Positions 872-12,891 of a stretch of 13,411 bases of DNA are shown here, piece by piece. Position numbers and translations under genes: made by a program. Source of the DNA: a virus. Taxonomy: Duplodnaviria > Heunggongvirae > Uroviricota > Caudoviricetes. Location of the stretch: positions 1 to 13,411 of the IMG/VR virus record IMGVR_UViG_2548876950_000004; one strand, given 5' to 3'. Each line of letters starts with the position of its first letter. Position 1 is the stretch's first letter. A model generated the notes under the pieces. That model was not told the DNA's origin. It searched no databases and saw only the letters and a list, made by a program, of their open reading frames with translations.

Positions 872-1291
872 TTACTCCGGTGGGGGATTATCTTTAAGCC
901 TGCCTCTCAAATATTTTTCTACATACTCATCGATTTCTTTTAGCCGGACTTCAAATAGCTCAATCATTCGTTGTTGTTCTGAGCCAGGTAGCTGGTTAAA
1001 CAACTCAAGAAGTTTTCGTTGGGATTCATTTAACCACAATTCAGAAGATTCCTGTTCTCCAAATAGGAGCTCAGGAGGAGATATGCCAAGTGCCTTTCCC
1101 AATACGACAGCGTCATGCACTCCAACATTTCTGCTGCCCGCCTCATAGTTACCTATACGCGATTGCGTCCATCCGCAGATTTCAGCAAGTTTTCCTTGAG
1201 ATAAACCAAGCTTCTGCCTGCGCTCTTTAAGACGCATTGCAATTTTGTCATTGAGCCTACTAGCGGCAATTTTTTCGTTTTCTTTTTCCAT
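872..1291 (-). CDS. CI-like prophage repressor, XRE-family HTH, 139 aa, no S24 peptidase domain
   Basis: HTH segment LGLSQGKLAEICGWTQSRIGNYEAG; divergently oriented to a Cro-like gene across a 96-bp operator region; C-terminal part is charged/coiled-coil like with no Ser-Lys autocleavage domain. Confidence 0.8.
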   Translation of the reverse strand: MEKENEKIAASRLNDKIAMRLKERRQKLGLSQGKLAEICGWTQSRIGNYEAGSRNVGVHDAVVLGKALGISPPELLFGEQESSELWLNESQRKLLELFNQLPGSEQQRMIELFEVRLKEIDEYVEKYLRGRLKDNPPPE

Positions 1292-7805: not shown

Positions 7806-7909
7806 GGTAAAAACGGTTTGCGGTAAAGCGAGAGTTAAGTAGAATTGCTGCGGGTGCTTGAGGCTATCTGCCTCGGGCATGCCACCGTAAGGCAGACAGA
7901 GAAAAGCCC

Positions 7910-7975
7910 CAGTTAACATTACGCGTCCGGCAAGACGCTTAACATTAATCTGAGGCCATATCTATGCTCTACACA
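7910..7975 (-). ncRNA. Expected position of the Sok-like antisense RNA of the hok locus (approximate, not delimited)
   Basis: Placed by analogy with hok/sok architecture, where the antisense RNA overlaps the leader and upstream start region. Promoter and 3' end could not be pinned from sequence. Confidence 0.25.
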
Positions 7976-8020
7976 CGTAGGTTAGCCTCTTACGTGCCGA
8001 AAGGCAAGGAGAAGCAGGCT

Positions 8021-8176
8021 ATGAAGCAGCAAAAGGCGATGTTAATCGCCCTGATCGTCATCTGTTTAACCGTCATAGTGACGGCACTGGTAACGAGGAA
8101 AGACCTCTGCGAGGTACGAATCCGAACCGGTCAGACGGAGGTCGCTGTCTTCGTAGACTACGAATCTGAGAAGTAA
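8021..8176 (+). CDS. hok: Hok/Gef-family type I toxin, 51 aa; in-frame upstream start at 7964 gives a 70-aa Mok-like form
   Basis: MKQQKAMLIALIVICLTVIVTALVTRKDLCEVRIRTGQTEVAVFVDYESEK has the hallmark Hok/Gef transmembrane segment and TRKDLCEV...GQTEVA motif; AGGAG upstream of ATG 8021. Confidence 0.8.
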   Translation: MKQQKAMLIALIVICLTVIVTALVTRKDLCEVRIRTGQTEVAVFVDYESEK

Positions 8177-9335: not shown

Positions 9336-9625
9336 TGGTGGATTTACGTAAAGCGGCGCGGGGGCAGATGTGCACCGTCAGAATTCCTGGCTACTGCAAT
9401 CACGATCCGGAAACGTCTGTGCTGGCGCATTACCGACTGGCGGGAACGTGCGGAACAGCGATAAAGCCACACGATATGCAGGCAGCGATTGCCTGTAGCT
9501 CGTGCCACGATTTAATCGACGGGCGGGTAAAAACCGGCGATTACACCAAAGAAGAATTACGCCTGATGCATGCAGAAGGTGTTTTTCGCACACAAGAAAT
9601 CTGGAGAAAGGAGGGATATTTATGA
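9335..9625 (+). CDS. YbcO-like (DUF1364) cysteine-rich protein, putative nuclease, 96 aa
   Basis: Size and several cysteines (CTVRIPGYC...CGT...ACSSCHD) fit the YbcO family that sits before Q in lambdoid prophages; translationally coupled on both sides. Confidence 0.55.
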   Translation: MVDLRKAARGQMCTVRIPGYCNHDPETSVLAHYRLAGTCGTAIKPHDMQAAIACSSCHDLIDGRVKTGDYTKEELRLMHAEGVFRTQEIWRKEGYL

Positions 9626-10176
9626 TTTACCCAACGAATACAGGAAAAAGCGGAGAACACCTTCGTCTCACCACGCTGGAAAGTGTCTGGATTCAGGGAA
9701 AACTACGTATGTGGGGGCGCTGGTCGTATATTGGCGGCGGTAAGACGGGAAATATGTTTAACCAGTTGCTGACCTCTAAAAAGCTAACAAAAACGGCAAT
9801 TAATGAGGCGCTCCGGAGGATGAAAAAAGCAGGTCTGGACAAACCTGAACTTGAGGCTTTTTTGCGGGATATGATCAACGGCAAGCAAAAAAGCTGGCTG
9901 GTGCATTGTACTGATGCAGAGGCGTTATGCATTGATCGGGTGATTAGTGAAGTGCTGGCAGAACACCCAGGATTGATTTGTATCCTCCGGCAAAGATATG
10001 AAGGGCGGGGGATGAGTAAGCGCAAAATGGCTGAATTGCTAAATGATGCACACCCTGAGTGGTGTTTTCGGACGTGCTGCAGTCGGGTAGATGTATGGCT
10101 AAATCTTGCTGAATATATGCTCTATCTGCCGATGCGTGATGCATTCTCTTCCGGGTATTTAAAAACTGTCTGTTGA
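9622..10176 (+). CDS. Putative late-gene antiterminator Q, 184 aa
   Basis: Called mainly from position: last gene of the nin-like block, immediately followed by a strong promoter overlapping its stop and a short terminated leader. Strong AAAGGAGGG ribosome-binding site. Sequence family not confirmed. Confidence 0.5.
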   Translation: MIYPTNTGKSGEHLRLTTLESVWIQGKLRMWGRWSYIGGGKTGNMFNQLLTSKKLTKTAINEALRRMKKAGLDKPELEAFLRDMINGKQKSWLVHCTDAEALCIDRVISEVLAEHPGLICILRQRYEGRGMSKRKMAELLNDAHPEWCFRTCCSRVDVWLNLAEYMLYLPMRDAFSSGYLKTVC

Positions 10177-10202
10177 CTCAATCTGTTATCCGGGGCTATA
10201 TT
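10173..10202 (+). promoter_or_regulatory. PR'-like late promoter (TTGACT-N18-TATATT)
   Basis: -35 TTGACT at 10173-10178 overlaps the stop of the upstream gene; -10 TATATT at 10197-10202. Confidence 0.55.
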
Positions 10203-10264
10203 CCTCACGCGCCAGCAAAATCTGGCGTCGGGATTAGGAACCCCGGATAGAGACCGCGACAGAC

Positions 10265-10287
10265 ACACGCCGCGAGCGTGTTTTTTA
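10265..10287 (+). terminator. tR'-like intrinsic terminator ending a short (about 80 nt) leader RNA
   Basis: Hairpin ACACGC-CGCGA-GCGTGT followed by TTTTTTATT, about 60-80 nt downstream of the PR'-like promoter. Confidence 0.65.
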
Positions 10288-10449
10288 TTGTCGTATGCAC
10301 GCGCACATCTGAATTATGGTGGGGCGTATGGGGGAGCTGAAAAGCTCGCCGGTTGGTTTCCCGGTAGTTCCTAACCCTGTACGTCTCACCACCCGATGAT
10401 TAGGAACCTGACGGTGGTGATGGTTTAGAAACCACCAGAGGGCGTCATT

Positions 10450-11031
10450 ATGACAACTCAAATTTCTGTTGAAACTCTCTCCCCGATCACCCATAACCAG
10501 ATTCCTGTTATTACCACCGAACTTTTGGCGCAGTTGTACGGTGCTGGAGTTAAGAACATTCAAAATAACTACGCCAGAAATGCTGAGCGCTTTATTGAAG
10601 GAAAGCATTTTTTCAAAGTGGCTGGCGATGCCCTGAAAAATTTGCGGGTAGCTTTAAACTACTCACAAAATTTGCAACCATCTTTAAGAGGGTTACAAAT
10701 TTCCCCGAAAGCCCGCTCCCTCATCCTCTGGACAGAACGCGGAGCAGCCCGTCATGCCAAAATGCTGGAAACCGATCAGGCGTGGGATGTGTTCGAAAAG
10801 CTGGAAGACTGCTATTTCAGACAAAAGGATCCGTCAGCGCCAGTTTCATGCCAGAAAAGTTACGACACGCGAGTTCTCTGTTATCAGAGAGGCGGTGTCA
10901 CTGTTTCCACAATTCAGTTACGGGATGATGATATTGTTATTTCCCTTGAGTCATGGCTGGAACTGGCGAGAGCCAATGGTTGGTTTGTTGTTCGCAGAGA
11001 TAAACTGGTGGAAAGGTTGATGCAGCTTTAA
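10450..11031 (+). CDS. ORF6N/KilA-N-like domain protein (antirepressor-type regulator), 193 aa
   Basis: N-terminal IPVITTELLAQLYGAGVKNIQNNYARNAERFIEGKHFFKV matches the recalled ORF6N consensus (LAELYG...RN..RF...F). Confidence 0.55.
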   Translation: MTTQISVETLSPITHNQIPVITTELLAQLYGAGVKNIQNNYARNAERFIEGKHFFKVAGDALKNLRVALNYSQNLQPSLRGLQISPKARSLILWTERGAARHAKMLETDQAWDVFEKLEDCYFRQKDPSAPVSCQKSYDTRVLCYQRGGVTVSTIQLRDDDIVISLESWLELARANGWFVVRRDKLVERLMQL

Positions 11032-11128
11032 AAAAGTTCTTGCATTTTTGCACATAAACTGCTTCAATTCCTGTATGCTTCGCAAAGCTGTATCGCGAGG
11101 CGAAACGCAAGTTTTTTTCGCACAAGGA

Positions 11129-11151
11129 AGCCACCGGAAGGTGGTTTTTTT
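11129..11151 (+). terminator. Intrinsic terminator after the ORF6N gene
   Basis: Hairpin CCACC-GGAA-GGTGG followed by TTTTTTT. Confidence 0.65.
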
Positions 11152-11274
11152 GTGTCCGTAATATACAGCAGCGCAATAAATTCGCTGGTGGTTATTAATA
11201 CCGTTCTTTCAGCTTGCTGGCTTTTTCGACAAGAGTTATTGGTATGTCACGTTAACCGGAAAGGGTAAAAAGAC

Positions 11275-11472
11275 ATGCTGAAACAGCAGGATATGACAGA
11301 AACCGCCAGAGTTGTGTTTGATGAATTAAGCGTTACCGAACCGGCGACAGTCGGGGAGATTGCGCAGAATACTTACCTTTCACGCGAACGCTGCCAGTTA
11401 ATACTGACCCAGCTGGTTATGGCGGGTCTGGCAGACTATCAGTGCGGTTGTTACAGACGCATTCAGTCCTGA
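11275..11472 (+). CDS. Small putative DNA-binding protein, 65 aa
   Basis: ORF with a weak AAGGG ribosome-binding site; the VGEIAQNTYLSRERCQLILTQLVMAGL segment looks like a winged-helix/HTH. Confidence 0.4.
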   Translation: MLKQQDMTETARVVFDELSVTEPATVGEIAQNTYLSRERCQLILTQLVMAGLADYQCGCYRRIQS

Positions 11473-11513: not shown

Positions 11514-11607
11514 CGGCACCTGTCAGTCCTTTGCTTATGTGTTGATGATAATTTACCTTTTGGGGCTATAATTGAGCTAACCAATTGCTAATGAAAGTAA
11601 AATTATA

Positions 11608-12321
11608 ATGGCTGTTGTCTGTTCAGTTATCATGGTTTGCTCCCCAATTAATATTTTTCTTGAAAAGGATACGTTGTCACTTAAGCCAGGCTCAGTCGTT
11701 CTGGCCACCAAATGCATCAGGGAGCTTTTCCTTATGCATTATGGCAAAGTTAAAATTGTCGATATAAGCGAATCCGTCGTAAGTCAATATCTGGAAAGTC
11801 AGCATAAGCTGACGAGGACTCGTCTGACTGACATTCCGCTTTACCTGTTGCTGGAACCCAACAATCCTGCGTTGGCTGCGGCTTTAATTACCAGCCAGGG
11901 ATTTTCCGGAGAGGTCACGGATATGTTTCTTATGATGGCCTGCCTGTCTCTGTTTGAAACAGATGAACGGATGTCATTGTTTTTAAGTGGATGTTTATCC
12001 AGCATAAGTGCCAAAGTCAGGGCGATAATTCAGACAGATATATCAGCAAGCTGGACGCTTGGTGCGATTGCTCTACAGTTGCATATGAGTGAGAGTTTGT
12101 TAAAGACAAAACTGAAAAATGAAGGGGGCATGTTCAGTCGCTTGTTGCTGGAAGAGCGGATGCGTGTTGCTGTAAATATGTTATGTTCCCGGCATGGATA
12201 TGGACAGGCTGTAGCAGAAAAATGCGGTTATTCAAGCAGGTCCTACTTTATTTCTGTATTTCACCGCTATTATGGCTTCCCGCCAGACAGATATGTATCC
12301 AGGCAAGGGCTTGATTATTGA
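11608..12321 (+). CDS. AraC/XylS-family transcriptional regulator, 237 aa
   Basis: C-terminal double-HTH typical of the family (SWTLGAIALQLHMSESLLKTKLK...YGQAVAEKCGYSSRSYFISVFHRYYGFPP); located in the cargo slot between Q and the lysis genes. Confidence 0.75.
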   Translation: MAVVCSVIMVCSPINIFLEKDTLSLKPGSVVLATKCIRELFLMHYGKVKIVDISESVVSQYLESQHKLTRTRLTDIPLYLLLEPNNPALAAALITSQGFSGEVTDMFLMMACLSLFETDERMSLFLSGCLSSISAKVRAIIQTDISASWTLGAIALQLHMSESLLKTKLKNEGGMFSRLLLEERMRVAVNMLCSRHGYGQAVAEKCGYSSRSYFISVFHRYYGFPPDRYVSRQGLDY

Positions 12322-12349: not shown

Positions 12350-12425
12350 GGCCCTTTAGCTCAGTGGTGAGAGCGAGCGACTCATAATCGCCAGGTCGCT
12401 GGTTCAAATCCAGCAAGGGCCACCA
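12350..12425 (+). tRNA. tRNA with CAU anticodon (Ile2/Met type, ileX-like)
   Basis: Cloverleaf by hand: acceptor GGCCCTT/AAGGGCC, anticodon loop CTCATAA, T-loop TTCAAAT, 3' CCA. Close to the host ileX sequence as I recall it. Confidence 0.7.
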
Positions 12426-12426
12426 A

Positions 12427-12503
12427 CCGCCACTAGCTCATCAGGAAAGAGCGTCAACCCTTTAAGTTGAGTGTGCGAGGTTCGAGTCCCCGGTGGCGGT
12501 CCA
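12427..12503 (+). tRNA. Atypical tRNA-like gene, anticodon UUU (Lys-like), possibly a pseudo-tRNA
   Basis: Acceptor CCGCCAC/GTGGCGG with CCA end, D-arm and TTCGAGT T-loop present, but C at position 33, a C1:G72 start and one T-stem mismatch. Confidence 0.45.
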
Positions 12504-12505
12504 GT

Positions 12506-12581
<76 letters not shown>

Positions 12582-12584
12582 TAT

Positions 12585-12659
<75 letters not shown>

Positions 12660-12866: not shown

Positions 12867-12891
12867 GCCCGCTTTTGCGGGCTTTTCTTTT
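12867..12891 (+). terminator. Intrinsic terminator downstream of the tRNA cluster
   Basis: Hairpin GCCCGC-TTTT-GCGGGC followed by TTTTCTTTT. Confidence 0.7.

Follow-up and report, generated by a model that had tools for sequence, protein, structure and literature searches.

Positions 10173-11031 of the 13,411-nt (13.4-kb) stretch of phage DNA that we analyzed, here called the window, most probably form a single IsrK-C4 cassette of the P1 immI type, in which the antisense RNA C4 blocks translation of an antirepressor and the small RNA IsrK counteracts the block. Phage immunity modules of this kind are known already; the cassette represents no new kind of system, and the name "IsrK-C4 immunity system" already exists in the literature (PMC3632133). 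What had been taken for a "leader" of about 270 nt contains two RNA genes, both above their Rfam gathering scores (Table 1).

Table 1. Features of the putative IsrK-C4 cassette and associated genes; positions are those of the window.
Feature	Position	Strand	Description
Prophage repressor, presumed target of the antirepressor	872..1291	-	139 aa; Pfam HTH_3 / HTH families only
Q-position gene	9622..10176	+	Pfam DUF1133, 2e-106; weak Phage_antitermQ, 26.5 bits
Predicted sigma-70-like promoter	10173..10202	+	-35 TTGACT, 18-nt spacer, -10 TATATT; 10/12 matches in the scan
IsrK-like sRNA	10209..10287	+	Hairpin 1 (10209-28), hairpin 2 (10229-45, a1 in loop), b1, terminator; ~79 nt
a1, TTAGGAAC	10234..10241	+	Loop of IsrK hairpin 2; first direct repeat
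b1, GAGACCG	10250..10256	+	Degenerate copy of b2; pairs with b' by 5 Watson-Crick and 2 G-U pairs
IsrK intrinsic terminator	10265..10287	+	Stem 10265-10281, 6 bp with 4 G-C pairs, then T run TTTTTTATT
C4-type antisense RNA	~10318..10393	+	17-bp tRNA-acceptor-like stem, two inner hairpins, single-stranded junction
b', TGGTTTC	10354..10360	+	Loop of C4 hairpin 2
a', GTTCCTAA	10367..10374	+	C4 single-stranded junction; inverted repeat; RNA form GUUCCUAA
a2, TTAGGAAC	10400..10407	+	6 nt past the C4 end; other direct repeat
b2, GAAACCA	10428..10434	+	3 nt between its end and the Shine-Dalgarno
Shine-Dalgarno of the ORF6N gene, AGAGGG	10438..10443	+	6 nt 5' of ATG; read from the sequence
ORF6N antirepressor gene	10450..11031	+	193 aa; homologue of Gifsy-1 anrP (STM2616)
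Intrinsic terminator 3' of the antirepressor gene	11131..11151	+	CCACC-GGAA-GGTGG followed by T7; read from the sequence

The upstream RNA gene matches the Rfam family isrK (RF01394) with 69.4 bits against a gathering score of 50, over model positions 1-77 at 10209-10286. Rfam c4-a1b1 (RF03163) is matched at 10196-10249 with 47.8 bits, barely above its gathering score of 46.7. The predicted RNA folds into two 5′ hairpins followed by a Rho-independent terminator, and it has a Q-type gene on its 5′ side and an antirepressor gene of the anrP type on its 3′ side as in the prophage Gifsy-1, with a Q of another family than Gifsy-1's. Across 15 related isrK-type modules the hairpins are 94-100% paired and the terminator is unchanged. 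The first-pass annotation had called 10265-10287 a "late terminator"; an intrinsic terminator does lie there, and "late" is plausible, with two further intrinsic terminators between Q and the holin gene. The Gifsy-1 homologue of this terminator allows partial read-through (PMC4825925).

The 163 nt from the IsrK terminator to the ORF6N start contain a whole structured RNA gene that had previously been overlooked. This segment matches Rfam C4 (RF01695) over the full model, 1-87, at 10312-10396 with 67.0 bits against a gathering score of 45; the RNA ends at ~10318 and ~10393 were inferred from the P1 c4 annotation. Its minimum free energy (MFE) is -42.8 kcal/mol (z = -5.8), and none of 200 shuffles was equally stable. 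All three helices are 100% paired across the 15 modules, and hairpin 1 shows compensatory changes. We ruled out that the leader holds tRNA genes as it does in Stx phages, since ARAGORN finds tRNAs in the window only at 12350-12659.

The repeats that had drawn attention to this region fall into the two RNA genes and the adjoining mRNA. TTAGGAAC occurs exactly three times in the window, twice as direct repeats on the plus strand and once as the reverse complement GTTCCTAA, with the three copies spanning at most 174 nt. By chance 0.28 copies per window are expected and three copies were reached in 2 of 200 shuffles; shuffles, conservation and covariation together rule out a chance origin. The direct repeats had been located exactly (10234-10241 and 10400-10407), and the inverted copy is present one base upstream of the position first given for it (10368-10375). 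In the P1 immI scheme, which is a C4-type antisense system, these repeats correspond to sites a1, a′ and a2. A second complementary trio, b1/b′/b2, which the first-pass annotation lacked, lies beside the Shine-Dalgarno. C4 can form 8 bp with a2 (a′:a2) and 7 bp with b2 (b′:b2), and of the upstream copies on the same transcript a1 is exact and b1 pairs by way of its two G-U pairs. In the close relatives U11 and U14, b1 reads GAAACCG. The proposal that the repeats are control sites is thus sound, but the picture of a plain leader with operator-like repeats is not, for two sRNAs are encoded and the repeats are sites of RNA-RNA pairing. We read them as RNA pairing sites because of the Rfam matches, a three-way covariation, a bias towards G-U wobble pairs and the compensatory mutations published for Gifsy-1.

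Covariation was assessed in 93 distinct related modules by searching for complements of at least 7 nt in self and non-self pairs. A complement to a′ was present at a1 in 90 of 93 modules and at a2 in 91 of 93, compared with 5.4% of non-self pairs, and b′ was complementary to b2 in 84 of 93 (9.7% of non-self pairs). Only 47 of the 93 have an exact b1 that reaches 7 nt or more. These modules carry approximately 15 types of a and 27 types of b sequence in 41 a/b combinations, and the end of b2 lies 2-15 nt from the ATG in almost all of them. Counting a′:a2 by MAFFT columns was abandoned because a2 is one column out of register in the Gifsy-type rows. Within the 15 isrK-type modules, 98.2% of the a1:a′ and b1:b′ cells are paired (slid controls, 20-45%), with 27 double-sided changes, a number matched by 0 of 500 shuffles. 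Because the sequences are related and not independent, the counts of covariation in both sets imply more evolutionary events than took place. The a1:a′ helix alone is 96.9% paired and has double-sided changes at three pairs. Finally, the b helices are lengthened by G-U pairs more often than by the A-C mirror control (27 versus 12 and 29 versus 11), which fits pairing of plus-strand RNA.

Covariation in all copies would also be expected if the repeats were DNA operators of a co-evolving, sequence-specific protein, and an 8-mer that occurs near a promoter twice in direct and once in inverted orientation could be read that way, with the RNA matches being incidental. We consider this extremely unlikely. 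Every copy is located 3′ of the transcription start, at a loop or junction of a conserved RNA structure, and the b trio assorts independently of the a trio to give the 41 combinations. No variable DNA-binding gene accompanies the cassette, whose neighbours belong to several unrelated families. Where pairs are mismatched, the sense strand favours G-U; in Gifsy-1 compensatory RNA mutations are effective, and the P1 sites are annotated as C4 RNA targets.

Upstream of the RNA genes, the Q-position gene, with its start taken from the PGAP annotation of an identical O145 prophage, matches PHROG 753 "anti-termination protein Q-like" (4e-80), and its similarity to Gifsy-1 AntQ is below detection. A search of NCBIfam returned a family for neither the ORF6N protein nor Q. 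The predicted promoter overlaps the stop codon of this gene and aligns with the Gifsy-1 promoter. We set the Gifsy-1 +1 at position 2520 of our Gifsy-1 sequence (L001) by way of the numbering in the paper (first orf45 AUG = A107), and so placed it coincides with the Rfam isrK start. Judged by its sequence, the predicted promoter is the equivalent of Gifsy-1 PisrK and, by position, the counterpart of P1c4 (formerly P51b) in the P1 annotation; it is also a candidate for the late promoter pR′. LexA control of the antirepressor was ruled out: no CTGT-N8-ACAG box lies near the cassette, and the four one-mismatch matches in the window are at chance level.

The gene downstream encodes an ORF6N-type protein, as first annotated (Pfam PF10543, residues 12-105, E = 4e-19, 69.1 bits, cut-off 27.8). 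Over residues 1-193 it matches PHROG 2379 "anti-repressor" (1e-90), and it is 54% identical to Gifsy-1 AnrP/STM2616 (E = 3e-67); the first 27 residues are identical and the C-terminal 70 residues, the last third, diverge. Copies that are 100% identical occur in E. coli O145:H28 and O157:H7 genomes, labelled "ORF6N domain-containing protein", and a PDB sequence search found no solved relative. The stem of the terminator beyond the gene, at 11131-11151, was also reported by the terminator scan, on the opposite strand. In Gifsy-1, expression of AnrP raises antQ-operon mRNA and induces the prophage, and AnrP alone is non-toxic (PMC4825925). Of the two roles first suggested, antirepressor or toxin, the former is the best functional reading, given the PHROG match, the identity to AnrP and the shared gene order. 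The presumed target, the repressor at 872-1291, has no match to a Pfam peptidase or self-cleavage domain; it is of the same size as the Gifsy-1 repressor and shares 46% identity with it over 35 residues in the C-terminal part. Because this repressor is short and HTH-only like that of Gifsy-1, an antirepressor path to induction is plausible, in keeping with the original idea of a conditional regulator of induction.

ORF6N is a domain assignment only, and the protein might have a toxic function, serve in defence or interference, or be an antirepressor directed against other resident prophages and not its own. The divergence of its last 70 residues from AnrP would allow this, as would PADLOC matches to the candidate system PDC-S05 over the ORF6N domain, which are weak and at the domain level only (best E = 2e-6), and trans-acting antirepressors are known among Gifsy prophages (reported by Lemire et al. 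2011). We nevertheless find such a role quite unlikely in view of the full-length PHROG match, the behaviour of AnrP, which is non-toxic alone and induces Gifsy-1 (PMC4825925), and a resident repressor that is of the Gifsy type and has no self-cleavage domain.

For an antirepressor under C4 and IsrK control, we infer by analogy the following switch, including the sign of each step. The promoter would be constitutive and drive transcription from approximately 10209, and the majority of transcripts would end at the terminator to give the IsrK-like sRNA with a1 and b1. Read-through transcripts would include the tRNA-like C4, whose junction presents a′ (GUUCCUAA) and whose hairpin loop presents b′ (UGGUUUC). 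C4 would pair with a2 and b2 on the ORF6N mRNA and block ribosome loading, leaving little antirepressor in the lysogen. The gap of 3 nt between b2 and the Shine-Dalgarno suggests such a block, but as b2 stops short of the Shine-Dalgarno and a2 lies 43 nt from the AUG, occlusion of the ribosome binding site is a putative mode of repression. IsrK would serve as a target mimic through a1/b1, competing for a′/b′ in trans and, in the unprocessed transcript, in cis, and a rise of IsrK relative to free C4 would turn antirepressor translation on. The ORF6N protein would then inactivate the HTH-only repressor, early and Q transcription would rise, and more read-through into the cassette would be expected to follow from Q. 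Experimental observation of C4 repression of ant and of RNase P processing comes solely from homologues (P1). Hartmann et al. in 1995 (listed in PMC11143913) are said to have found that P1 C4 RNA, of ~77 nt, is matured by RNase P from the operon transcript.

In the window, the complementarity of a1/b1 to C4 is longer than that of the real target a2/b2, and the duplex of C4 with IsrK has a predicted energy of -52.9 kcal/mol, versus -39.6 kcal/mol for C4 with the ant leader. When the entire leader is folded, its MFE structure contains the a1:a′ and b1:b′ helices and resembles structure A of the Gifsy-1 paper (PMC4825925). The same structure speaks for a Gifsy-1-style cis switch that has no C4 repressor, in which a1:a′ is the inactive fold, IsrK opens it in trans, a small ORF is coupled to the antirepressor, and "C4" is only that ORF and the switch. 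Such a switch is the published model of the closest characterised homologue and is backed by mutational, gel-shift and footprint data (PMC4825925). In Gifsy-1, IsrK activates AnrP translation via the a1:a′ pairs, as compensatory RNA mutations demonstrate, and a1 mutations in cis raise basal AnrP translation; the authors explain this by translation of orf45 coupled to anrP, without a C4 repressor (PMC4825925). A simple decoy model fails to predict this cis effect. In related modules, an ORF from an AUG at the C4 5′ edge is open to the antirepressor start in 38 of 38 modules of the "TTACACT" type and 13 of 15 of the "TTACAT" type, and in the window an ORF of 27 codons (10316-10399, stop TGA at 10397-99) overlaps one of 10 codons (10396-10428) by ATGA.

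Against a cis switch, a 45-codon ORF ending in the antirepressor ATGA is present in only 7 of 93 modules and is missing in the window, where no in-frame start reaches 10451-53. With orf45 cut to 27 codons, the Gifsy-1 coupling model cannot be transferred to this DNA, and the orf45 coupling step is not general. The cis switch would also leave a2 and b2 without a role, yet they covary with a′ and b′ in 91 and 84 of the 93 modules, and it sits poorly with the covariance-model match of C4, its very stable tRNA-like fold and the stable processed RNA STnc1160 found at this position in Salmonella. We regard a cis switch without C4 as unlikely here.

C4 may instead act mainly on transcription, its pairing with a2/b2 ending transcripts prematurely, either before the ORF6N gene or inside it. 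To this we assign a small but appreciable chance; it is compatible with translational repression by C4, and both could operate. One of its two precedents is the Rho-dependent polarity of P1 icd-ant. [quoted passage not shown] However, no intrinsic terminator was predicted for 10394-10450, the position of b2 just before the start codon in almost all modules fits control of initiation, and the ~140-fold increase in AnrP translation caused by IsrK in trans far exceeds the 8-fold effect on the transcript (PMC4825925). We conclude that repression of translation by C4, relieved by IsrK, is the better account of the cassette.

Of 5,426 complete E. coli genomes searched, about one third contain the cassette, whole or partial, with O157:H7 and O145:H28 prophages among them, and many Stx-converting phages carry related cassettes. 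PGAP annotation of E. coli O145 str. RM9872 gives only an "ORF6N domain-containing protein" at this locus and no RNA gene. Among 96 C4 modules with a called downstream ORF, the next gene is of the ORF6N type in 65 and Icd or Icd-like in 27. A scan of genome contigs with the 16-mer AATTATGGTGGGGCGT gave 15 pattern matches, in 14 of 120 returned loci, that are C4-like by a loose sequence filter. These are mostly from Enterobacterales (E. coli, Salmonella, Pectobacterium, Citrobacter, Brenneria), and the other loci are probably chance 16-mer matches, to judge by which hosts are named and how large the collection is.

We also offer, as a speculation with a limited chance of holding, that the leader RNA of the late promoter could be a trans-acting anti-antisense RNA, with Q antitermination, the level of IsrK and translation of the antirepressor forming one feedback loop and the hypervariable a and b sites (at least 15 x 27 types) forming a two-part RNA address code. 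If true, the a/b code would decide which co-resident prophages of polylysogenic EHEC silence or awaken each other's antirepressors. The code of the window, TTAGGAAC/GAAACCA, stands behind two Q families, DUF1133 here and a Q933-like protein in another locus (L084), which makes cross-talk between different prophages at least possible. Co-resident prophages had different codes in both same-genome sets checked (L021/L041 and L091/L096), and the three sets available are too few to generalise from. Two RNAs and a pairing code would explain the silencing of an antirepressor able to trigger induction of a prophage, potentially an Stx phage, and the code pinpoints the exact nucleotides to mutate.

The closest known system is the antQ-isrK-orf45(STnc1160)-anrP region of Gifsy-1 in S. 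Typhimurium (Hershko-Shalev et al. 2016, PMC4825925), whose gene order is that of the window after the Q-position gene. Promoter, IsrK and terminator are homologous, the Rfam trio isrK, c4-a1b1 and C4 occurs in the same order, the leader is ~81% identical at the DNA level, and the repressor is short and HTH-only in both prophages. By our placement, a1 and a′ are the sites hit by the Gifsy-1 mutations G28A and G31A and by their partners C162U and C159U, so that the compensatory changes in the literature lie within a1:a′ pairs and tie the genetics of IsrK to the P1 C4 scheme. The two differ in their a and b sequences (TTGGCGT and ATCACCG in Gifsy-1; TTAGGAAC and GAAACCA here), in a Q gene from an unrelated family, and in orf45, which has 45 codons and a stop overlapping the anrP AUG as AUGA in Gifsy-1 whereas it has 27 codons and is uncoupled here. 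The isrJ gene found 3′ of the antirepressor gene in Gifsy-1 is absent from the window.

The immI region of phages P1 and P7 was reportedly the subject of Citron and Schuster's work in 1990. It comprises the promoter P1c4, a1 b1, c4, a2 b2, icd and ant1/2 (NC_005856 annotation), and the order of elements, the RNA fold and the relative promoter position are the same in the window. As in P1, where they read CTGTCAA and CACTAAC, a′ and b′ occupy the junction and the hairpin-2 loop, respectively, with a2 directly 3′ of C4 and b2 at the ribosome binding site; P1/P7 heteroimmunity is the counterpart of the variation in specificity among modules. Unlike P1, the window has no icd-like ORF between C4 and the antirepressor gene, and the ATG at 10450 follows directly 3′ of b2; b2 would consequently guard the antirepressor's own ribosome binding site. 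The antirepressor is of the ORF6N type and not Ant1/2, a1/b1 and C4 have a strong intrinsic terminator between them, which would yield a discrete sRNA, and the cassette lies 3′ of Q in a lambdoid prophage whereas that of P1 is under C1 control. The P4 immunity region (seqA, CI RNA, seqC) and the N15 anti-immunity region are, by published description, structural homologues of IsrK/C4, with a processed RNA that pairs with flanking sites on both its sides (PMC3632133, PMC4825925). P4 uses this pairing to terminate transcription of replication genes and not to control an antirepressor, whereas in N15 the processed RNA is described as controlling an antirepressor gene.

The open reading frame at 10450-11031 (193 aa) encodes an ORF6N-domain protein (Pfam, E = 4e-19), as the first-pass annotation had stated. 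The protein shares 54% identity with AnrP, the Gifsy-1 antirepressor, with residues 1-27 identical, and it matched over its full length a PHROG annotated as anti-repressor (1e-90). Its presumed target is the repressor encoded at 872-1291, a 139-aa, HTH-only protein whose length and C-terminal part resemble those of the Gifsy-1 repressor. Published work attributes the inactivation of Gifsy repressors to antirepressors and not to the lambda-type RecA-dependent route.

The first-pass annotation had also put forward repeats of TTAGGAAC in the leader of this gene as candidate control sites. All three copies are present, and they are the only ones in the window, within a span of 174 nt; the inverted copy, GTTCCTAA, lies at 10367-10374, one base lower than had been reported. 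The chance level by shuffling is 0.28 copies per window, and three were reached in 2/200 shuffles. A complementary-stretch search additionally found a second set that had been missed, TGGTTTC with GAAACCA. An Rfam search at gathering thresholds placed three overlapping or adjacent RNA families on the + strand of the leader, listed in the table with its promoter, terminator and pairing sites.

Features of the antirepressor leader (a and b sites as putatively assigned by position)
Feature	Position	Strand	Evidence or location
Sigma-70-like promoter, TTGACT-18-TATATT	10173-10202		upstream of ORF6N gene; overlaps Q-position gene stop codon
c4-a1b1 (RF03163)	10196-10249	+	Rfam 47.8 bits vs 46.7
isrK (RF01394)	10209-10286	+	Rfam 69.4 bits vs threshold 50
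a1, TTAGGAAC	10234-10241	+	loop of IsrK hairpin 2
b1, GAGACCG	10250-10256	+	pairs with TGGTTTC using two G-U pairs
Intrinsic terminator	10265-10281 plus T run		upstream of ORF6N gene
C4 antisense RNA (RF01695)	10312-10396	+	Rfam 67.0 bits vs 45
b', TGGTTTC	10354-10360	+	loop of C4 hairpin 2
a', GTTCCTAA	10367-10374	inverted copy	C4 single-stranded junction
a2, TTAGGAAC	10400-10407	+	6 nt beyond C4 end
b2, GAAACCA	10428-10434	+	3 nt before Shine-Dalgarno AGAGGG, 15 nt before ATG

The P1 genome annotation gives the order promoter P1c4 (former P51b), a1, b1, c4 (77 nt), a2, b2, icd and ant, with a2 four bases beyond c4 and b2 at the ribosome binding site of icd; reading the P1 sequence, we located a' (CTGTCAA) within the junction and b' (CACTAAC) within the loop of hairpin 2. 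Because the sites in the window occupy the same positions, we assign the TTAGGAAC copies as putative a1 and a2, GTTCCTAA as a', TGGTTTC as b', GAAACCA as b2 and GAGACCG as b1. C4 is predicted to fold into the shape of its family, with a 17-bp acceptor-like stem, two hairpins and a 9-nt single-stranded junction (-42.8 kcal/mol, z = -5.8, zero shuffles equally stable). In P1, c4 begins with the G of the ATG of AATTATGG and has CCACC as its 3' end, so the mature C4 here is predicted to span ~10318-10393.

The 3' strand of the C4 acceptor stem, TCACCACC (10386-10393), is also able to pair with GGTGGTGA (10413-10420), which places a2 in a hairpin loop, and GGTGGT could in turn pair with ACCACC (10431-10436), overlapping b2. 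Both strands differ in P1 (locus L003, 48411-48419 and 48431-48439; CCTGCCACC and GGTAGCAGG) yet remain complementary at 8/9 positions, so this alternative hairpin between the C4 stem and the downstream segment appears to be conserved.

Viral contigs were scanned for the conserved C4 5' edge AATTATGGTGGGGCGT; at least 120 contigs matched, and adding the window and the comparison loci brought the set to at least 123 occurrences and at least 93 distinct 300-nt modules (leader cassettes with a C4 RNA). Scoring perfect complements of at least 7 nt in own modules and in non-self pairs, we found among the matches listed that a' paired with a1 in 90/93 own modules (non-self 5.4%) and with a2 in 91/93 (5.4%), and b' with b2 in 84/93 (9.7%) and with b1 in 47/93 (8.1%); because the module sequences are related these counts are not independent events, and the distinct types are still numerous (about 15 for a and about 27 for b, occurring in 41 combinations, among the matches listed). 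The b helices were lengthened by G-U more often than by the mirror-image A-C control (b1, 27 vs 12; b2, 29 vs 11, among the matches listed), a bias that would be expected of sense-strand RNA pairing and not of a DNA site. When 15 isrK-type modules were aligned with MAFFT, the a1:a' and b1:b' helices were 98.2% paired and carried 27 double-sided changes in 5 pairs (0/500 shuffles reach this; slid controls, 20-45%), and the RNAs' own hairpins were 99.1% paired. A control role for the repeats fits these results, and the Rfam matches, covariation and G-U bias indicate that they are pairing sites of C4 and IsrK rather than plain leader motifs. One contig from a scan of genome contigs (locus L216) carries two C4 modules that share the b' loop and differ in the a' junction (GTTCCAA, GTGCAAA), which suggests independent exchange of a and b sites.

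Hershko-Shalev et al. (PMC4825925) reported that the Gifsy-1 isrK promoter yields a short sRNA and a read-through isrK-orf45-anrP transcript, that AnrP translation rises ~140-fold with IsrK in trans, and that AnrP, non-toxic alone, raises antQ-operon mRNA and induces Gifsy-1. The Rfam C4 match in Gifsy-1 falls on their 'orf45', which the authors note to correspond to STnc1160, a stable RNA; P1 c4 is not cited in that paper. We set +1 of their numbering at position 2520 of the Gifsy-1 locus (L001), which is the Rfam isrK start and makes the first orf45 AUG nucleotide A107. On that numbering, G28A and G31A fall in a1 (UUGGCGU) and their partners C162U and C159U in a' (ACGCCAA), which makes the published compensatory data a direct test of the a1:a' helix.

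The reading with the best support is the P1 scheme plus the Gifsy-1 addition. C4 would be freed from read-through transcripts and would bind a2 and b2, denying the ribosome access to the antirepressor start, and IsrK would act as a target mimic competing for a' and b'. The predicted duplex energy is -52.9 kcal/mol for C4 with IsrK vs -39.6 kcal/mol for C4 with the antirepressor leader, the IsrK duplex being more continuous. In the minimum free energy fold of the whole unprocessed leader, both the a1:a' and the b1:b' helices form in cis, which is 'structure A' of the Gifsy-1 paper. Cis mutations in a1 of Gifsy-1 raise basal expression (PMC4825925), an effect that a pure decoy model does not predict, and the explanation offered by its authors requires orf45 translation coupled to anrP; for these reasons our confidence in the P1-type scheme stays below certainty. 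The 45-codon orf45 is present in only 7/93 modules among the matches listed, and in the window its frame ends after 27 codons (TGA, 10397-10399), so control in the window is most likely exerted directly at the antirepressor's own ribosome binding site.

In the 'TTACACT'-type modules among the matches listed, an ORF from the AUG at the C4 5' edge runs open to the antirepressor start in 38/38, and in 34 of these it is in phase with the antirepressor; in the 'TTACAT'-type modules listed it is open in 13/15. The other two frames average 1-2 stops. This ORF is split in the window into 27 codons (10316-10399) and 10 codons (10396-10428) with an ATGA overlap. Mature P1 c4 begins at the G of this ORF's AUG, and RNase P processing and translation from this AUG would be mutually exclusive.

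The description of the leader terminator as 'the late terminator' is plausible. The promoter-IsrK cassette stands behind unrelated Q-position genes: DUF1133 in the window, an 82-like Q in Gifsy-1 and a Q933-like gene in locus L084. All of them share the -35, the -10 and the spacer's 3' half, and because just the 9-10 nt after the -35 differ (window 10179-10187; loci L001, L084, L111 and L069), this stretch is a candidate Q-binding element. Before the holin (12952) is reached from the Q-position gene there are two other strong intrinsic terminators, at 11131-11151 and 12867-12890, the second ~60 nt before the holin. Late transcription must therefore pass at least three, which is consistent with a Q-modified polymerase that begins far upstream.

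Chromosomes of E. coli O145:H28 and O157:H7 carry identical copies, 1,701/5,426 complete genomes match 10150-11180 at least in part, and the leader matched in 248 phage records, most of them of Stx-converting phages. The gene that follows a C4 module is most often of ORF6N type (65/96 modules with a called downstream ORF, among the matches listed). The one annotation examined, PGAP for E. coli O145 str. RM9872, has no RNA gene at the cassette, and the practical value of this work is that the exact control nucleotides are now defined there.

Several neighboring features were also observed. An Rfam sok antitoxin match (7852-8026, +; 112.6 bits vs 59) lies over ORF 7964-8176, which sits where a related O145 prophage has an annotated Hok/Gef family gene; this is a putative hok/sok-type toxin-antitoxin locus in the early-to-late region of the prophage. 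After the antirepressor, the late region carries two cargo-like genes, one for a 65-aa protein (11275-11472, +; PHROG 331, unknown function) and one for a 237-aa AraC-family HTH protein (11608-12321, +; PHROG 1450); the latter gene has a promoter-like site of its own (11545-11572). The AraC-family gene is separated from the lysis genes by four tRNA genes in tandem (Met-CAT, Lys-TTT, Thr-TGT, Gly-TCC; 12350-12659, +), whereas in RM9872 the otherwise identical cassette is followed by IS3 copies and Ile-Arg-Arg tRNAs instead.

Systems of this kind are already known from P1/P7, P4, N15 and Gifsy-1, with their RNA families in Rfam, and Barquist et al. 2013 (PMC3632133) described an 'IsrK-C4 immunity system' common to P4, P1, P7, N15 and some lambdoid Salmonella prophages. 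The Gifsy-1 leader is ~81% identical to that of the window and has the same Rfam trio between the Q gene STM2617 (antQ) and STM2616 (anrP); the window promoter matches P1c4 in position, and P1 is without Q. To these systems the window adds a member without orf45 coupling, with a different Q family and a pairing code of its own.
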